A DNA stretch of 64,000 bases from Oscillospiraceae bacterium (GTDB lineage Bacteria; Bacillota; Clostridia; Oscillospirales; Acutalibacteraceae): contig JAITGE010000011.1 of NCBI GenBank assembly GCA_031280825.1, positions 115 through 64,114 on the forward strand. Direction: 5' to 3'. Shown here in pieces: positions 3,206 to 63,871 of the stretch. The stretch's first letter is position 1, and every line of letters begins with the position of its first letter. A program made the translations under genes and the position numbers. Under the pieces are notes generated by a model. It was given only the letters and a program-made list of their open reading frames with translations. It was not told the DNA's origin and did no database searches.

Positions 3206-3505
3206 ATGCTTTTGTCTTGCGAAAAAATTGCGCCCTACTGGCTGCGGGTGGCGGCAATCCTGCTCACGATGCTGGGCATTGGCTTTCCGCTCATGAACTA
3301 CCAGTTTGTGCAAAAGGAGCATGTGCAGGAATTGCGAAAGCAGATCGATGAAGCAAAAGAAGACCGCCCAAAGATTGAATCAATGTTACTTAGTGCGAGT
3401 AAACAGTTGCAGGAGAATCAAGAAAAGATCGACGCGCAAAACTGCGCGTACCAAAAAAAAGCTCGGCAATTACAAGGTGACGACGAAGGAGGCGGCAACG
3501 GATGA
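3206..3505 (+). CDS. Hypothetical small membrane-anchored coiled-coil protein
   Basis: 99 aa with one TM ([18 protein letters not shown]) then a charged helical region. Its stop overlaps the fucI start (ATGA). RBS is weak. Confidence 0.35.
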
Positions 3506-11040: not shown

Positions 11041-11399
11041 GATTTCGCTTTTGTCAGCAGCTCTTTTCCGCCAACAAGAATTAGGAAGCCGCCGAAAATC
11101 CACGCAAGCCATTTTGCTTCCAGCATCCCCGTGACCCAAATGCCCAAGCCTGCGGCGGGCAGCCCGCCCAGCGTAAGCTTGAGCGCGGTTTTCCAATCCA
11201 CCAGCTTGCGTTTCGTGTTAATTATCAAAGAAATCACCGCGCAGGGCAAGAAGAAGAGCAAATTCACACCCTGCGCGGCGATTTGCGGCACGGCGAGCAC
11301 CAACGTGAGGTAAATGACCAATATACCGCCGCCGCCCATGCCCATCGCGCCCAGCGCGCCCGCGCCTAAGCCTGCCAAGATATTCCACAGCCATTGCAT
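11037..11399 (-). CDS. TSUP/TauE-SafE family transporter, C-terminal half-size unit (4 TM)
   Basis: 120 aa from [25 protein letters not shown]. Its ATG shares one base with the upstream stop (TGATG). Confidence 0.7.
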
Positions 11400-11764
11400 C
11401 AGCGCATCACCATCCGAATCCCCGCCCAAATCATGAAGGCGGCAAAGATCTTGCGCAGCCATTTCGCCGGAAGCTTTGCAAGCAATAGACCGCCCAGCAA
11501 CGCGCCGACCGTGCCGGGCAGCAAAAAGACAACCGCATCCTCAACCGTAAAGCGATCCAGTAAATAATACGCGACTGTGCTCAGTGCCGCCAGCGGAAAG
11601 ATCACTGCCACTGCGGTTGCGTGGGCGTTTGTTTGCTGCAAGCCCAGCTTTTTAAGCAGAGGCACAGCGAGCATCCCGCCGCCAGCGCCCAGCAACCCGT
11701 TCATAAACCCGACAAAAACGCCGCCGCCTATGCTGAGCAGCGTTTTTTTCTTGCCTTCTTCCAT
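11399..11764 (-). CDS. TSUP/TauE-SafE family transporter, N-terminal half-size unit (4 TM)
   Basis: About 121 aa (GLLGAGGGMLAVPLL motif). Start is uncertain: the ATG at 11764 directly abuts AGGAGG, and 11782 is an alternative. Confidence 0.65.
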   Translation of the reverse strand: MEEGKKKTLLSIGGGVFVGFMNGLLGAGGGMLAVPLLKKLGLQQTNAHATAVAVIFPLAALSTVAYYLLDRFTVEDAVVFLLPGTVGALLGGLLLAKLPAKWLRKIFAAFMIWAGIRMVMR

Positions 11765-11856
11765 CCTCCTAGCGCACCTCATCCCGGCTTTTCCAGCCAT
11801 TGATGCGTTTAGTTTGCGCTATATTTTTGCATCTATGCTTTGGCGCCTGTGTGAAA

Positions 11857-26120: not shown

Positions 26121-27137
26121 TCATCCGTCGGTATCCGGTTGAACGCCTTCCATGGCCAGCGGATTTTTCTCCACAGCCTCGCGCAACTGACGGCTCGCCA
26201 AATGGGTATAGATCTCCGTGGTCGTAAGATTTTCGTGTCCAAGGATTTCTTTGAGCTGCAGTACGTCCACATCGTTTTGATATAGCAGTGTCGCCGCCGT
26301 GTGGCGCAGCTTATGGACGGAATAGCCGCGTCCGTCAAGACCTGCCAGCTTCAGGTATTTTTCCAGCATCAGCTCCACTGAACGCTGGTTGATGCGACGG
26401 TTGTTGCGGCTGATAAACAGCGCATCCCGATCCTTCTGTTGCACAGAATCCTGCGGGCGCACGCGTAAGTATCGCCCAATAGCGGCAATGCAGGCGTGGT
26501 TCAGGTAGACCACGCGTTCCTTGCTGCCCTTGCCGCGAATGCGCAGTGTTCCTTCCTGCAACCGGATATCCGGTAAATTGATACCGCATAGCTCCGAAAG
26601 ACGCATGCCGCAATTCAGAAATAGAATCAACATGCAGCTGTCGCGTTCACGGTAATCGCCTTCAACGGCATCTAGCAGGGATCGGCATTCTTCCAAAGAA
26701 AGGTATTTCGGCAGCGTCTTGTCAATTTTCGGCGATGTCAGCTCCTCCATGGGGTTGGATTCCAAAATATGCCGCGAAACGACCAGCCAGCGAAAGAAGC
26801 GATTGATGGAAACAGTCTTGCGGGCGCGGGTGCGGGGATTGTTGTCGCGTTCCGTGCGGCAATAGGCAAGAAATTCTGTCGCGATTTGCACGGAAATCGC
26901 GCCAAAGAAGTCTTCAGCGGGCTTGCCGTCGATCCAACTGAGGTTTTCAGCGTCATAATCCACGCCGGGGAAGCAGTGCGCGCACAACGCCGGCTCGTGT
27001 TCTACGATAAAAGCAAAAAAACAGCGTAAATCGGAGGCGTATTCCAGGATCGTCAGATCCGCCTTGCTCAGGTTGGTCAGGTAATCCAAATAATAGCGCA
27101 CCAAGGGCGGGAGGGTATGAAAATCATCGCGTTTCAT
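26121..27137 (-). CDS. Tyrosine site-specific recombinase, Xer family (XerD/XerS-like)
   Basis: 338 aa. Catalytic region GMRLSEL, HKLRHTAAT, LGHENLTTTEIYTH. The N-terminal domain is extended relative to ~300-aa XerC/D. Confidence 0.9.
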   Translation of the reverse strand: MKRDDFHTLPPLVRYYLDYLTNLSKADLTILEYASDLRCFFAFIVEHEPALCAHCFPGVDYDAENLSWIDGKPAEDFFGAISVQIATEFLAYCRTERDNNPRTRARKTVSINRFFRWLVVSRHILESNPMEELTSPKIDKTLPKYLSLEECRSLLDAVEGDYRERDSCMLILFLNCGMRLSELCGINLPDIRLQEGTLRIRGKGSKERVVYLNHACIAAIGRYLRVRPQDSVQQKDRDALFISRNNRRINQRSVELMLEKYLKLAGLDGRGYSVHKLRHTAATLLYQNDVDVLQLKEILGHENLTTTEIYTHLASRQLREAVEKNPLAMEGVQPDTDG

Positions 27138-27162: not shown

Positions 27163-27190
27163 ACTTCGCATAATTCATATTTTACGAATC
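27163..27190. other. Candidate dif-like recombinase core site (11-6-11)
   Basis: ACTTCGCATAA-TTCATA-TTTTACGAATC. The arms are imperfect inverted repeats (7/11). The site lies 26-53 nt upstream of the recombinase ATG. Confidence 0.4.
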
Positions 27191-27234: not shown

Positions 27235-27263
27235 ATTTTAACACAACCCTGCGCGTGCGTCAA
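27235..27263 (-). promoter_or_regulatory. Candidate sigma-A promoter of the recombinase gene
   Basis: Minus strand: TTGACG, 17 nt, TAAAAT, about 100 nt upstream of the ATG. Confidence 0.55.
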
Positions 27264-27475
27264 CGCCCACGCAAAATCCGCAGAAAACACGGCGCTAACT
27301 CCTGCCAGTATTCCAGCCGCACCCGCGCTTCCAGAAGCTCCAGCAGGTCGAGCGCATCCACCTGCCGCTCCTGACACAGACGGTAACGGCACATCTGCAC
27401 GTATGCCGCTTCTACCCTGTCATGTTCCCACATCACGAGGTTCGACAACTGCAGCAGCTTGTCTTCAGCGGTCAT
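27260..27475 (-). CDS. Hypothetical 71-aa helical protein
   Basis: The ATG overlaps the stop of the Zot-like gene (ATGA). No family recognised. Confidence 0.45.
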   Translation of the reverse strand: MTAEDKLLQLSNLVMWEHDRVEAAYVQMCRYRLCQERQVDALDLLELLEARVRLEYWQELAPCFLRILRGR

Positions 27476-28185
27476 ACGGCGAACACGCCCAGTTCTTCCA
27501 GCGACGGCAAAGGCTCACGGACAACAGGCGTGTAATATGTGTCGTACAGCCCATAGTACGGCTTACGCGCGAATTTGCAGTCTTTTACGTGTGCTTCGCA
27601 AACCTCCCAAGATACCTTACGCAATCCGCGCTTTAACCCTCTGCCTACAAGCTCTGTGTTACGGTCGGCTACCTTGGCTAGGGTTGTCTTGCTGATGTCA
27701 ACATAAGATGTATTTCGAAAAAACGGATGCTGGGAAAGATGCACGCAATAATCTGCGGCTCGGCGAATATTCAGGTCAACGGCATCATAAGCTTGCGAGG
27801 ATAACCACAGGCGGATATTGTTCTTGCGGAGAAAGTTGAAAAACTCATCATCGGAAGCAGTCCAATCTTTGTAACCACGAGCTGGCCAGAGAGTACGACA
27901 CTCATCAAGGAGAATAATACAATCGTGAAAATCATGATTATAGAGAAAAGCTTTATCCAGTTCCATGCGGTGAACACCTTGTTTAACGACTTCAACCAAA
28001 GGCAAACGAACAGCTCCATTGACAGGATAAGTGGAGAATAATGTCAAATCCAAGCGTTCCGAAATCTCTGTAGCCATACACAAAAGCGAAGACTTACCGG
28101 CACCACGGTCACCAACGATAAAAAGACATGTAGCATCGCCCAGAAGCCTTTTTATTTTTCTATTAATGAAATTTGAGAACCACAT
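27472..28185 (-). CDS. Zot/pI-like P-loop NTPase (inovirus assembly-ATPase family)
   Basis: 237 aa. Walker A GDRGAGKSS, Walker B CIILLDECRTLWPAR, then FFNFLRKNNIRLWLSSQAYDAVDLNIRR, matching the Zot-family pattern DEaq..w..R...f..hRh.g.d....Q....id..iR. The N-terminal two thirds are AT-rich. Confidence 0.7.
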   Translation of the reverse strand: MWFSNFINRKIKRLLGDATCLFIVGDRGAGKSSLLCMATEISERLDLTLFSTYPVNGAVRLPLVEVVKQGVHRMELDKAFLYNHDFHDCIILLDECRTLWPARGYKDWTASDDEFFNFLRKNNIRLWLSSQAYDAVDLNIRRAADYCVHLSQHPFFRNTSYVDISKTTLAKVADRNTELVGRGLKRGLRKVSWEVCEAHVKDCKFARKPYYGLYDTYYTPVVREPLPSLEELGVFAV

Positions 28186-28187
28186 AT

Positions 28188-28337
28188 TTAAAGCCTAACC
28201 ACCTTCCGAAACAGTAAAATAATGGAAATAAACGACAAAATGCCAGACAAAAACAAAGCCCAACGAATATCAGGTGTGACAAAAAACCACGTTAACCAAT
28301 CATAAAAACGGCTAAAAAAATCTGACCAGTAAGCCAT
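28188..28337 (-). CDS. 49-aa membrane protein with filamentous-phage coat-like architecture
   Basis: MAYWSDFFSRFYDWLTWFFVTPDIRW (amphipathic/acidic), ALFLSGILSFISIILLF (TM), RKVVRL (basic tail). RBS AAAGGGG lies 6 nt upstream. The gene ends 2 nt before the Zot-like ATG. Confidence 0.5.
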   Translation of the reverse strand: MAYWSDFFSRFYDWLTWFFVTPDIRWALFLSGILSFISIILLFRKVVRL

Positions 28338-28343
28338 AACAAA

Positions 28344-28359
28344 CCCCTTTCGAAAGGGG
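28344..28359. repeat. Perfect 16-bp palindrome CCCCTTTCGAAAGGGG
   Basis: Read directly. On the minus strand it is followed by TTTGTT and then the ATG of the 49-aa ORF. Confidence 0.9.
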
Positions 28360-28401
28360 ACTTCGTTAAAAATAAACCACACCTGACTGTCTGCCGGAAA
28401 A

Positions 28402-28659
28402 ATGAATTTCCCGCGCGTGGTGAAATTAAAACCCCGGCAACCGCGAAGCCTGGAATACATTCCTAAAAGCGCGAAAGTCGGCAGAACCCACGATGATTTT
28501 CTGGCGCATGTGGTTGGAAACGGTCTCAATTCCTGGGTCGAAACGGACACCGTGATCGGACGCGTCGGCGGAAAAGTCATCCTTACGCCGGATTTCACGT
28601 TCTGCAATTTTCAGGCGGGGCTGCTGCCGGACAACAGAACCTCGCCGGAAGCCGCCCTG
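28402..28659 (+). pseudogene. Relic of an IS30-family transposase (central fragment only)
   Basis: The plus-frame translation ...GNGLNSWVETDTVIGRVGGKVILT...LLPDNRTSPEA resembles the IS30 DDE region G(H/D)WE.DTV.G..G.k..LlTl.ER...lpdkts.av. There is no N-terminal HTH and no distal D/E region. Confidence 0.35.
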
Positions 28660-28766
28660 AGGAGCCCTCTTTTCGGAGTTGTTTGCCTTTGCCTTGTTAT
28701 CGGCGCACCTCCCCAAGATCCCTGTCCATCGCATTTCCGGTTCCTTTCCCATGCTTACCGCAGCGC

Positions 28767-30761
28767 TCACCCAGGTGGGGCGTGCCCCGTGCCGCCCTGC
28801 AATTCCTCAATGCGATCCCGCAAATAGGCGGCGTGCTCAAATTCCAACAGCTTCGCCGCCGCCTTCATTTCCACCGTCAACTGGCGTATCATCACTTCCC
28901 GCTCAGCGCGAGAGAGCCGCTTTGTTCCGTCGCTTGGCTTTTCCTTTGTGTCCTTCGGGATTTTACCCGTGATTTCGATGATTTCGCGCACATCCTTGCG
29001 AATGGTTTGCGGCACGATGCCGTGGGCTTCGTTATACGCGAGCTGCCTCTCACGGCGACGCTGGGTTTCCAGTAGCGCGCGCTCCATGGAAGGCGTCACT
29101 TCATCCCCATAAAGAATTACACGCCCCTCAGCGTTCCGCGCAGCGCGACCGATGGTTTGGATCAGCGACGTTTGTGAGCGTAAAAATCCTTCCTTGTCAG
29201 CATCCAACACCGCAACAAGCGATACCTCCGGCAAATCCAATCCCTCGCGAAGCAAATTGATGCCCACCAGCACATCGAATTCGCCCAAGCGCAAATCCCG
29301 CACGATTTCCATGCGCTCCATCGTTTGCACGTCACTGTGCATATATCGCACACGAATTCCGACCTTCTCAAAATACGCCGTCAAATCCTCCGCCATGCGC
29401 TTGGTGAGCGTTGTAACCAGAACACGTTCGCTCCGCGCGGCGCGGATATTGATTTCTGAAACCAGATCATCGATCTGCCCGGGCGTGGGGCGCACCTCAA
29501 CTTCGGGATCCACCAATCCTGTAGGGCGAATGATCTGCTCGGCGACCGCGCCGCTGTTTTGATATTCAAATTCGCCGGGCGTTGCACTGACGAAGATCTT
29601 CTGCCCAAACCGCTCCCAGACCTCGTCAAAGCACAGGGGGCGGTTATCATACGCGGAGGGCAAACGAAAGCCGTAGCCGATCAATTCATCCTTACGCGCG
29701 CGGTCGCCGGCGTACATTGCCCGGAGCTGCGGCAGCATCACGTGGGATTCATCCACAAACACAAGAAAATCCGAAGGGAAAAAATCCAGCAGCGTGAACG
29801 GTGCAGAACCGGGCGACCGCCCCGCCATCACGCGGGAATAATTTTCAATTCCCTTGCAAAAGCCTGTTTCACGCAGCATTTCCATGTCATAAAGCGTGCG
29901 CTGTCGAATGCGCTGCGCCTCAATAAGCTTCCCGCCACGCTCAAATTCCGCCACGCGATCCATCATTTCCGCCTGGATGGTTACGATGGCGTCCTCCAAA
30001 CGCTCCGGCGGCACAACATAATGTGAAGCCGGATAAATCGCCACATGCTGCAGCGTCGCCCGCACCTCGCCTGTAAGCGCAGTAATTTCGCTGATGCGCT
30101 CAATCTCATCGCCGAAAAACTCCACGCGCAGCGCAACCTCGCTGGATCTTGAAGGAAAAATTTCGACAACATCACCGCGCACACGGAACTTATTGCGCGT
30201 GAAGCTCAGATCGTTGCGTTCATAACGAATTTCTATCAGCCGCCCAATCAGCCATTCGCGGCTGCGTTCCATGCCGGGGCGCAGCGAAACCACCATACGC
30301 TTATAATCATCGGGCGTGCCCAGTGAATAAATGCACGAAACGCTCGAAACGATGATTACATCCCGCCGCTCCACCAACGCAGAGGTTGCGGAATGGCGCA
30401 GTTTATCAATTTCCTCATTGATAGAGGAATCCTTTTCAATGTAGGTATCGGTCGCGGAAATATACGCTTCGGGCTGATAATAATCATAGTAGCTCACAAA
30501 ATATTCAACTGCGTTTTTGGGAAAGAACTCGCGGAACTCACCACAGAGTTGCGCTGCCAGGGTCTTGTTATGCGCAAGCACCAAAGCCGGGCGGTTCGCT
30601 TGGGCAATGATGTTCGCCATGGTGAAGGTTTTACCCGAACCCGTAACGCCCAGTAGCGTCTGCGCGTCCTCCCCTGCCCGCAGCCCGGCAAGCAGTGCGG
30701 CGACCGCCTGCGGTTGGTCGCCCGTCGGCGCAAAAGTGGAATGCAACTGAAACGCATCCAT
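28767..30761 (-). CDS. uvrB: Excinuclease ABC subunit B
   Basis: 664 aa. [10 protein letters not shown], Walker [10 protein letters not shown]-terminal UVR domain ([14 protein letters not shown]). Confidence 0.97.
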
Positions 30762-61058: not shown

Positions 61059-62543
61059 TCACGCACCCGCAGGTATCCTTTCACAATTGGCAAAGACACG
61101 CTCAAAGCGATCCAGCGCATCCTGAATCAGTTCCGGCGTGTAGGCTGCGCTCGTATACAGACGGCTGCCCGCAAGCGTCACAATCCCCTCGGCCATATAC
61201 GCCGCGCCCATGTGCTCCATTTCCTTTTTGCGCACGCTCGTCGCCTTCAGCACGCCGGGGATGCCCCAAGGCTTCATCCAGTCAATGGCGTAATGCATCG
61301 TTCCCGCGTTATCTAGGTGACAGATGCTGCCTTGGTTAAACACCACGAAGGGCAGCTTGTATTTCCGCACAAGCGCCTTCAGCCCGGCGGTAAGCAGGTC
61401 GCCCATTGCGCCCGCTTTTGCGCAGGCGTCCGTGCGGTCAATCTCTTCGAGCGTATAGTACCCTGCCACGCAGCTGATAGGCGTAGCCGCCATCGTGCCG
61501 CCAATAAGCGCCTTCTTTACCTTGGATGTGCCGTCCAACCCCGCGCCAAGATATTTCATGTACTCTTTTTTGCCGCCTATGCCGCCCGCGCCGGGATAAC
61601 CGCCCGCCACGACCTTGCCGAAAATCGTCAGATCGGGCGACACGCCGAAATACCCCTGCGCACCCGACATGCCGATGCGGAAGCCCGTCACGACCTCATC
61701 GAAGACCAGCAGCGCGCCGTATTTGCGGCAGAGCCTCTCGACACCCTTGTTGAAATCAAAATCCAACGGACGCGTGCCGCTTTCGGGTCCGACAGGCTCC
61801 ATATATACCGCCGCCGTGCCGCCGCTGAACTTATTCAAAAACAGCACGCGCTCAAGCGAATCCAAGTCGTTCGGGAAGAACTCCTGCGTGTGCTTAAAAA
61901 GATACAGCGGCACGCCGTTCGCCTGCGTGAACTTGCTCCCCGGCACACGGATTCCATATGCCAGCTGATCGCTCCAGCCATGGTAAGCGCCACCCATCTT
62001 AACGATATTCTTCTTCTTCGTCGCCAGCCGCGCCACGCGCGCCGCCGCCATGCAAGCCTCGCTCCCCGAACCCATCATTCGGAACATATCCACGGTCTCA
62101 ATGCTGTCGGCAATCTTTTTGGCCAGCTTATATTCGAATTCATGAAACAGACCCGTGGATGGTCCGCAGGTATCCAGCAGCTCCTTCACCTGCGCGCGGA
62201 TGCTCGGCGGGTTCGAGCCAAGCACCGTCGGACCGCCAGCCTGTAAAAAATCCAAGTATTCGTTGCCGTCGGCGTCCACCAGATAATGATCCTGCGCCTT
62301 GGTGAACACCAGCGGGAAGGGATAATTGAACGCCAGATTGTGCTGCACCCCGCCCGGGATGATCTTGCGGGCTTCCTCCAGCATCGCCTTGGATTTGGTG
62401 CACTTTTTGCCGTAATACTCGGCTTTGTATTCTGCTAGCTTCTCCTTTTTCACCGAATAGATTGGCTTTTGGATTAACTGATCCAGCTCCCGTGTCACCG
62501 CCTTCGCGTCGAGATACGTTTTGATTGCGAATGAACCGCCCAT
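61059..62543 (-). CDS. Class III aminotransferase-fold PLP enzyme (GSA-aminomutase-like)
   Basis: 494 aa from MGGSFAIK (RBS GGGAGGG). MGSGSEA, VFDEVVTGFR, and the PLP-lysine context DLTIFGKVVAGGYP. Confidence 0.8.
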   Translation of the reverse strand: MGGSFAIKTYLDAKAVTRELDQLIQKPIYSVKKEKLAEYKAEYYGKKCTKSKAMLEEARKIIPGGVQHNLAFNYPFPLVFTKAQDHYLVDADGNEYLDFLQAGGPTVLGSNPPSIRAQVKELLDTCGPSTGLFHEFEYKLAKKIADSIETVDMFRMMGSGSEACMAAARVARLATKKKNIVKMGGAYHGWSDQLAYGIRVPGSKFTQANGVPLYLFKHTQEFFPNDLDSLERVLFLNKFSGGTAAVYMEPVGPESGTRPLDFDFNKGVERLCRKYGALLVFDEVVTGFRIGMSGAQGYFGVSPDLTIFGKVVAGGYPGAGGIGGKKEYMKYLGAGLDGTSKVKKALIGGTMAATPISCVAGYYTLEEIDRTDACAKAGAMGDLLTAGLKALVRKYKLPFVVFNQGSICHLDNAGTMHYAIDWMKPWGIPGVLKATSVRKKEMEHMGAAYMAEGIVTLAGSRLYTSAAYTPELIQDALDRFERVFANCERIPAGA

Positions 62544-62743
62544 TTGCTTGCCCTCCCAAATCATGAATTTTAATTCATATTCGCTGTACAGCATTATACC
62601 ATAGATGCAGATAAAGCGCAACCTGCTTGCATGAAGTTACAAAACGTTCATATTTCCTATGGGATAAGTTCACATTATATTCCAAATTCGAATTATTCTA
62701 GAGAAAATTTGTGTTACAATGCTCAAAAGTAGAAATGAAATGA

Positions 62744-63871
62744 GTGATTGCTTTGGCTAAGAAGACGGTTTTTCTAACAGGGTCATCCGGGAACATGGGC
62801 TGGCACGGCTTCAAAGAGCTTTATAAGCGCAAGAACAAATACAATCTTGTGCTGCTCAACCGGGACAGCGAAAAATCCCGGGCGATGTTTGCGCCATACG
62901 TGAACGACCCTGCCGTGAAGCTCATTTGGGGCGACCTGCGCAATTATGAAGACGTTCTGGCAGGCGTGACGGGCGCGGATGTGGTGCTGCATGTGGGCGG
63001 CATGGTCAGCCCCGCGGCGGATTATGATCCGCGCGGAACAATCAAAACCAACACAACAGCGGCGCGGAACATCGTTAACGCGGTGAAGGCGCAGCCCAAC
63101 GCAGACGAAATTCGCACGGTTTATATCGGCACCGTCGCCGAAACAGGCGAACGTGACGCTCCTATTCACTGGGGGCGCTGCGGCGACCCCATCAAGGTCA
63201 GCGTGTATGATCACTACGCCATCAGCAAAGTGATCGCCGAAAGCGTCTTCGCCGAATCCGGCTTGAAGCACTGGGTTTCGCTGCGCCAAAGCGGCATCCT
63301 GTATGCCAACATCATCAAAAATTACGACCCGATCATGTTCCACGTGCCAATGAACGGCGTGCTGGAATGGGCGACGGTAGAGGACAGCGGTCGCTTGTTG
63401 GCCAACGTTTGCGAGGATTGGGTTCCGGAGGACTTCTGGCGCAATTTTTACAACATCGGCTCGGGCGCGGATTACCGCATCACAAACTTCGAGTTTGAAT
63501 CCTATCTGCTGGGCGCGCTGGGTCTTGGCTCGCCTAAGCAGCTGTTCAACATCAACTGGCATACTCTGCGCAATTTCCACGGGCAATGGTATGCGGATTC
63601 AGACAGGCTGGAGGAATTTCTGCACTTTCGCGAAAACAAGCCCATCCGGCAATATTTCGCCGAAATTGCCGCCGATCTGCCGTGGTTCTATAAGCTGGCG
63701 AAGATTGCGCCCAAGGGCTTGGTCAAAAACCTCGGCATGAAGCGCCTGACAAAAATGCCCGTCTATGGCACCATGCACTGGATTGAAAACAACAACGAGC
63801 CGCGCATCAACGCCTATTTCGGCAGTCGCGCCGCGTGGGAAGCCATTGGAACGTGGGAAAGCTGTACATGA
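62744..63871 (+). CDS. NAD-dependent epimerase/dehydratase-family (extended SDR) protein
   Basis: 375 aa. Rossmann motif VFLTGSSGNMG and YxxxK (YAISK). The start codon (GTG or a nearby TTG) is uncertain. Confidence 0.75.
   Translation: MIALAKKTVFLTGSSGNMGWHGFKELYKRKNKYNLVLLNRDSEKSRAMFAPYVNDPAVKLIWGDLRNYEDVLAGVTGADVVLHVGGMVSPAADYDPRGTIKTNTTAARNIVNAVKAQPNADEIRTVYIGTVAETGERDAPIHWGRCGDPIKVSVYDHYAISKVIAESVFAESGLKHWVSLRQSGILYANIIKNYDPIMFHVPMNGVLEWATVEDSGRLLANVCEDWVPEDFWRNFYNIGSGADYRITNFEFESYLLGALGLGSPKQLFNINWHTLRNFHGQWYADSDRLEEFLHFRENKPIRQYFAEIAADLPWFYKLAKIAPKGLVKNLGMKRLTKMPVYGTMHWIENNNEPRINAYFGSRAAWEAIGTWESCT

Follow-up and report, generated by a model that had tools for sequence, protein, structure and literature searches.

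Introduction

Filamentous phages that integrate at chromosomal dif sites by means of host Xer recombinases (integrative mobile elements exploiting Xer, IMEX), together with prophage relics, are well known in Vibrio, Xanthomonas, Neisseria and other bacteria (PMC4246890, PMC5357621). In Vibrio there are also satellite IMEXs, TLCphi and RS1 (PMC5357621, PMC6744903). The phage attachment site (attP) of TLCphi and of GGI matches dif in one arm and the central region, the other arm being degenerate (PMC5357621). Among Gram-positive gut bacteria, inoviruses with a short form of the morphogenesis ATPase pI (Zot) are known from viromes and from Enterocloster, and direct repeats have been noted at the ends of their prophages (PMC9723715, PMC10061712). 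The pI gene was used by Roux et al. as a marker of inoviruses (PMC6813254). In streptococci and lactococci, the recombination site difSL is genetically linked to the gene of its recombinase XerS (PMC1914069, PMC5357621). In the open-access literature we found no description of dif/Xer integration of Gram-positive short-pI inoviruses, nor of a dif site directly before xer in Oscillospirales. Here we analysed a 64-kb stretch (the window) of a contig from a metagenome-assembled genome (MAG) of a gut-type Oscillospiraceae bacterium, in which three small minus-strand genes, one of them for a Zot/pI-type ATPase, lie next to a dif-like site and a xer gene. We propose that this segment is probably the right-hand end, about 1.2 kb long, of a truncated inovirus prophage.

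Like the Vibrio IMEX phages CTXphi, VGJphi and TLCphi, the inovirus clade to which the segment is related has no integrase of its own and appears to integrate at chromosomal dif. As in TLCphi and GGI (PMC5357621), the attP read in two phage-only contigs, L010 and L011, combines one conserved arm plus spacer with one degenerate arm. Tandem prophage arrays, here in L006 and L009, and hosts that keep relics or partial copies are common to both systems. Unlike those of Vibrio, the hosts here are Gram-positive Oscillospirales with dif immediately upstream of a xer gene, and the copy in the window has lost its left attachment site (attL) and most of its genes. With the Gram-positive gut inoviruses (Propionibacterium phage B5-type gpI, the Enterocloster phages of PMC10061712 and inoviruses from pig and rodent faeces, among them bajarodino virus 43) the clade shares a Zot/pI of about 235-260 amino acids without a transmembrane (TM) segment, numerous small open reading frames (ORFs) for single-TM proteins, a genome size of 5-8.5 kb and direct repeats on either side of the prophage; the window differs from them in holding only 3 of about 15-20 genes. 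Like the Zot of the window, the pI of the Ff phages (M13/f1) has a P-loop ATPase domain, with Walker A and Walker B, at its N-terminus, and its gene follows those of the structural proteins; it continues, however, into a TM segment and a periplasmic part in contact with the pIV secretin, both of which are absent from this clade. The linkage of site and recombinase gene recalls XerS/difSL; however, the site here is a classical 28-bp dif (11-6-11) instead of the 31-bp difSL, and the Xer protein scores nearest to the XerC/XerD models, not to XerS.

A zot gene and its neighbours shared with related inoviruses

The segment (27260-28337) comprises three minus-strand ORFs for proteins of 49, 237 and 71 amino acids, called p49 (28188-28337), Zot (27472-28185) and p71 (27260-27475). 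They lie between uvrB (28767-30761) and the gene of a Xer-type tyrosine recombinase (26121-27137, minus strand). The tight packing reported in a preliminary description, which had been made from the sequence without database searches, is borne out by these coordinates: the stop codon of p49 is 2 nt ahead of the zot ATG, and zot and the p71 gene share an ATGA overlap.

The contig L002 (7,316 bp) encodes the closest homologue of the window's Zot (79% identity). It consists of small TM ORFs, a 49-amino-acid ORF, zot, a 72-amino-acid ORF, dif and xer, in the same order and orientation as in the window; the identities of its proteins to those of the window are 45% (p49), 79% (Zot), 49% (p71) and 73% (Xer). 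Upstream of these genes, L002 has another 5.4 kb, with small TM ORFs and further ORFs of phage type, that is missing in the window. In tblastx comparison with L002, phage homology extends from 28376 to the end of p71. When four full-length relatives were compared with the whole window in the same way, only the Zot region was found, in agreement with the preliminary description, which had regarded the segment as too small for a complete inovirus and had suggested a decayed prophage.

The 237-amino-acid protein scored 25.7 bits against Pfam Zot PF05707 (gathering score 20.3, E 9.4e-6) and matched PHROG 197 'Zot-like toxin' (1.6e-7). Among 50,697 phage records it matched inovirus genomes only, the best match being the Zot of bajarodino virus 43 (PQ006155, a complete circular inovirus genome of 8,022 nt) with 46.6% identity over 88% of the query (E 5e-62). 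A large protein collection contained 75 homologues, mostly of 233-260 amino acids, and an identical protein on one contig only. In an alignment of 21 family members, Walker A (GDRGAGKS, residues 25-32) and Walker B (LLDE, residues 92-95) are invariant, and the Zot of the window, an intact ORF, retains all 26 invariant columns. Searched against the PDB, a profile built from this alignment gave 2R2A at the top (1e-7). The AlphaFold2 model of the protein (mean predicted local distance difference test score, pLDDT, 88) likewise found 2R2A, a Zot N-terminal domain, first in Foldseek (E 1.9e-8, TM-scores 0.50/0.61), followed by the STIV2 B204 packaging ATPase. Because of the Pfam and PHROG scores, the restriction of matches to inoviruses and the recurrence of 2R2A by profile and by fold, the assignment to the Zot/pI morphogenesis ATPases, proposed in the preliminary description, is secure. 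A non-phage P-loop family was rejected for this protein, the AAA/ABC P-loop matches besides Zot all being below threshold.

No hydrophobic segment comparable to the C-terminal TM segment of classical Ff pI or Vibrio Zot is present in the Zot of the window (maximum Kyte-Doolittle value 1.01). The absence of a C-terminal TM region had been noted before, correctly, as a departure from classical pI, but it is not a defect of this copy: the segment is absent from all 21 aligned Zot proteins, including those of complete genomes. Since complete genomes also encode proteins of 233-260 amino acids, the short form is a trait of the whole clade and no sign of decay.

Integration of full-length relatives at dif

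In 11 distinct related contigs, a homologue of the window's Xer (46-73% identical) is encoded 0.3-3.5 kb downstream of zot, and in most of them a convergent spoIIM follows xer. The related inoviruses, which carry Rep domains PF23343 or PF01719, are 7.2-8.9 kb long and lie directly upstream of the host xer-spoIIM. An exact 17-nt repeat, consisting of the left arm and spacer of dif, bounds five full-length prophages, at 3321/11020 in L012, 1290/9646 in L009, 5172/14050 in L005, 3357/10590 in L021 and 128/8266 in L015.

L010 and L011 are circular or concatemeric contigs of phage DNA only. Their attP, in which ACTTCGCAAAACATATC is joined to ACCTTGGAAAT (in full, ACTTCGCAAAACATATCACCTTGGAAAT), shares 17 nt with dif, namely left arm plus spacer, and the junction of prophage and host (attR) in L009 reads ACTTCGCAAAACATATC joined to TTATGCGAAGT. 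The sequence of L010 starts over after 8,356 nt, and attL and attR in L009 are separated by just this distance. Neither L010 nor L011 contains an integrase domain or a xer gene. Because of the dif-like attP, the 17-nt flanking repeats and the lack of an integrase in phage-only contigs, we class the inoviruses of this clade as IMEX on their att-site sequences and gene content; the link to Xer and dif suggested in the preliminary description thus holds for the full-length relatives at this site, which are bounded by repeats of a dif half-site.

Tandem inovirus prophages were seen at dif in L006 (5172-19700) and L009 (1-9673). In L024, xer has the opposite orientation to zot and stands 5 kb from it, suggesting an inversion at the site. 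L015 (DBFJSK010000432.1) was binned as Tannerellaceae, yet it shows the order prophage-dif-xer-spoIIM found in the Acutalibacteraceae loci L005 and L006; this is probably a binning error.

The dif site, the xer gene and empty host loci

In the window, a dif-like 28-bp site (11-6-11) is located at 27163-27190 (minus strand), about 70-75 nt from the stop codon of p71 and ending 25 nt before the ATG of xer. Its sequence, ACTTCGCAAAACATATCTTATGCGAAGT, is unique in the window and consists of the arms GATTCGTAAAA and TTATGCGAAGT around the spacer TATGAA; as the right border of the segment, it corresponds to attR. The right arm TTATGCGAAGT is identical in the window, L009 and the loci L030, L031 and L032. 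A 28-bp imperfect palindrome of the 11-6-11 type lies directly upstream of xer in 9/9 loci, and its position before xer is equal in empty and occupied loci. That this site is a functional dif at the replication terminus is weakly indicated; the GC skew of the window, taken as a terminus signal, is suggestive and noisy.

The spacing differs between two groups of loci. In a group with high guanine-plus-cytosine (GC) content, 4-44 nt separate the dif-like site from the xer start downstream of it, in empty and occupied loci alike (27163-27190 in the window, 1019-1046 in L030, 9936-9963 in L031, 9931-9958 in L032 and 9646-9673 in L009; the coordinates for L030, L031 and L032 were back-calculated from dif-to-ATG distances). 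In a low-GC group, the site lies 43-333 nt before xer and reads ATTATACAAAA-N6-TTTTGTATAAT.

The Xer protein of the window matched Pfam Phage_integrase (6.9e-41) and came closest to the XerC/XerD models, below their cut-offs; it has more than 7,700 homologues at E <= 1e-60. The nearest relatives found are those of L030 (78%) and of L031 and L032 (64% each). In these three loci a GNAT acetyltransferase gene, dif, xer, spoIIM, dacB and a miaB-like gene follow one another with no phage genes between. The window shares the right-hand part of this order (xer, spoIIM, dacB, miaB-like), and its left flank is rearranged, with uvrB in place of radA, a methyltransferase gene and the GNAT gene. In the comparison of the interval before xer, which the preliminary description had recommended, the nearest relatives are empty at dif, related occupied loci hold inoviruses of 7.2-8.9 kb, and the three genes are absent from L030, L031 and L032.

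The Xer of the window is, on comparative grounds, a host recombinase lying outside the phage: its close homologues number in the thousands, its gene occurs at empty sites, and phage-only contigs lack it. Its identification as a phage integrase was rejected, given its occurrence at empty sites with spoIIM-dacB-miaB synteny and its absence from the circular or concatemeric phage contigs.

Two neighbouring genes also change place among these loci. In L031 and L032, TauE genes are situated to the left of xer at a distance of about 5 kb; in the window they have the inverse orientation and are on the opposite side (11043-11765). The uvrB gene, which adjoins the segment in the window, is found in L009 on the right of xer, 8 kb from it.

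The left border of the segment

The left edge of phage homology (28344-28376, minus strand) begins at 28376 in the comparison with L002 and includes a terminator-like hairpin, CCCCTTTCGAAAGGGG followed by TTTGTT (28359-28344), which a terminator scan placed directly before the ATG of p49. A counterpart stands in the corresponding place in L002, after the gene for a 76-amino-acid protein. The hairpin is a pattern match only, its fold being no better than that of shuffled sequence (z = -0.03). Between this edge and the stop codon of uvrB are 390 bp of junction DNA (28377-28766, GC 0.54), in which the long ORFs (both) gave no family match and no similarity was detected to any phage or host locus fetched. 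The left arm of dif with its spacer occurs only once in the window, which therefore has no hybrid site of the attL type.

A lone 11-mer resembling the right arm, TTTAACGAAGT (28361-28371, minus strand), was tried as attL and not used, because it matches at only 8/11 positions, with a probability of occurring by chance of about 0.1 (a rough estimate for the boundary region). Located just upstream of the hairpin, the same 11-mer equals the dif right arm of L008; this could reflect either a stray half-site left where the prophage was truncated or mere chance.

The 600-nt interval with the lowest GC content in the window is 27801-28400 (0.402, against a mean of 0.562 with a standard deviation of 0.039), and values of 0.38-0.44 prevail across 27.7-28.45 kb. 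The low-GC segment of the preliminary description is therefore real, but its flanks are at 0.53-0.59 rather than about 60%, and the dip does not cover the whole module: it is confined to the p49 gene (0.36) and the 5' half of zot (0.41), the 3' half of zot being at 0.50 and the p71 gene at 0.58, a host-like value.

Origin of the segment

We assign a probability of about 0.8 to the interpretation that the segment is the right-hand end of a truncated inovirus prophage. An inovirus of 7-8.5 kb would have used the host Xer to enter the chromosome at dif, just upstream of xer. A later deletion or rearrangement would have taken the left 5-7 kb, with the repressor, rolling-circle Rep, ssDNA-binding, adsorption and coat genes and attL, and would have joined the remainder to DNA downstream of uvrB. 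The survivors would be the terminator hairpin, p49, the Zot/pI ATPase, p71, an outward-facing promoter and dif. The five full-length relatives have a second hybrid dif-like border and the segment has none, which points to a former IMEX that was truncated. From what is directly visible, namely the homology, the gene order, the att-site structure of relatives, the empty sites and the absence of other phage genes from the window, we infer that this copy arrived by Xer recombination and was truncated afterwards. Because the Rep, ssDNA-binding, adsorption and coat genes and attL are missing, the relic would be unable to replicate, to excise or to build virions, and is presumably inert.

Some observations weigh against this interpretation. 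None of the three ORFs is broken and no invariant residue of Zot has been replaced, where damage would be expected in a long-dead relic; given the intact ORFs, either the truncation was recent, or the genes have been tolerated or used. In the selection test, synonymous divergence (dS) from L002 was saturated, so that selection after the truncation is not measurable. The 390 bp to the left of the relic match nothing and so give no guide to the course of the deletion. Only the MAG contig spans the left junction (28097-28594, containing p49, the terminator and part of the junction DNA): two contigs of an independent assembly (Logan) of run SRR14710902 show 100% identity to the window on either side of it and break off at 28594 and 28097. 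Finally, the approximately 75 nt between p71 and dif resemble, in sequence and spacing, the host promoter at the empty site L030, so the right border is perhaps not exactly at dif.

The intact genes could instead belong to a module that the host has retained, p49 and Zot (with or without p71) acting as a membrane ATPase unit or against superinfecting inoviruses; the preliminary description had named such domestication beside decay. All catalytic and invariant residues are present, the genes are translationally coupled, and the pairing of p49 with Zot is conserved across the clade. We nevertheless regard domestication as improbable. The three nearest relatives have empty sites and lack the module, and its truncated form was not seen in the other loci examined; the identical Zot is known from the one contig. 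A terminator-like hairpin lies directly upstream, the only promoter match, a weak one (9/12), falls inside the p49 ORF, and the 5' part retains foreign GC. The small size of the element and its position at dif also recall a miniature satellite IMEX mobilised by a helper inovirus, for which TLCphi and RS1 of Vibrio are precedents, but a second dif-like site, a Rep gene and a recognisable origin are all missing, and a full-length relative has a collinear stretch at its end. The element also keeps morphogenesis genes, whereas the inovirus satellites known to us keep replication and regulation genes and not morphogenesis genes. A satellite is accordingly a very remote prospect.

The break in the Logan contigs and the unmatched 390 bp would also be expected if the MAG had misjoined a phage end to the uvrB flank, the true genome or part of the population having a full prophage or an empty site; the stretch between 28097 and 28594 is backed by the MAG assembly only. 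However, this gap falls on the part of the window with the lowest GC content; low coverage there could by itself interrupt a strict k-mer assembly and is a sufficient explanation. No further phage fragment occurs in the window, the record is identical in NCBI and JGI, and a further locus, L036, independently confirms a phage right end beside dif-xer. An artefact or polymorphism of this kind has a small chance of being the explanation. Look-ups of uvrB, p71 and p49 for other strains of the species returned contigs of only one sequencing run, or nothing.

As a truncated prophage, the relic is a routine remnant that changes nothing by itself, and its value is that of a pointer. The comparison that it led to indicates that the short-pI inoviruses of Gram-positive gut and faecal bacteria, abundant in pig and rodent viromes, are Xer-exploiting, with attP and attB readable to the base, and that Oscillospirales have dif directly in front of a xer gene. 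This arrangement offers a simple rule for locating such prophages, finding dif and predicting hosts in MAGs.

p49 and p71

p49 has a single hydrophobic segment (residues 24-42, Kyte-Doolittle value 2.14) and a basic tail, FRKVVRL, with three basic residues, and so fits the layout expected of a coat protein (30-90 amino acids, one TM segment, basic C-terminal tail). It had been compared on this layout with the major coat proteins of filamentous phages. The layout is confirmed, but the identity as coat protein is doubtful: p49 matches nothing in Pfam or PHROG and no known coat family, and 15 of the 17 related loci examined have, adjoining or overlapping the start of zot, an ORF of 45-55 amino acids whose product combines an amphipathic N-terminus with one TM segment and a short tail of basic residues. 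In L002, ORFs of 73 and 76 amino acids farther upstream have longer basic tails, and the terminator hairpin follows the second of them. Since long basic tails are expected of coat proteins in contact with DNA, these two appear, from their sequences, to be better candidates for the major coat protein; such genes are missing from the window. p49 is probably a conserved small membrane partner of Zot and not the major coat protein, and, as the Zot of this clade has no membrane segment, it may serve as the membrane anchor of Zot.

The small acidic p71 is 49% identical to the 72-amino-acid ORF of L002 and 42% identical to an 81-amino-acid ORF of L009-L011, both in the same position after zot. A full HMMER search among 1.84 billion representative proteins found only 3-4 homologues, and a word-index search retrieved p71 alone. 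Neither Pfam, PHROG nor other families gave a match, and no hydrophobic segment is present. The helical nature claimed for p71 agrees with its single-sequence AlphaFold2 model, a helical hairpin, but the model has low confidence (pLDDT 65) and no fold match. The family is limited to the subclade of L002 and L009-L011, and other subclades carry unrelated ORFs or Rep after zot; by this distribution, p71 is a putative accessory gene of this inovirus subclade.

A promoter directed into xer

At 27235-27263 (minus strand), 44 nt upstream of dif, there is a sigma-70-like promoter, TTGACG-17-TAAAAT with TG (10/12 match), that points through dif into xer. All prophage-bearing loci have a sigma-70-like promoter (8-11/12) within 84 nt upstream of attR and directed into xer (at about 9530-9560 in L009 and about 10990-11020 in L012; also in L010 and L011), and in L009, L010 and L011 it belongs to the phage genome. 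Integration would otherwise part xer from a promoter upstream of dif, such as that at the empty site L030.

With so short a distance from dif to the xer start codon in the high-GC group (4-44 nt), transcription of xer is expected to cross dif. It is conceivable, though rather doubtful, that in the high-GC Oscillospiraceae group an inovirus at dif separates xer from its native promoter and supplies in its place an outward promoter beside attP. If so, the phage would control the expression of the recombinase that it exploits, and the right end of the prophage could not be lost without silencing chromosome-dimer resolution, which would explain the survival of this end.

Elsewhere in the window, the second lowest GC content (0.445) is found at 62250-63000, where two long ORFs meet.

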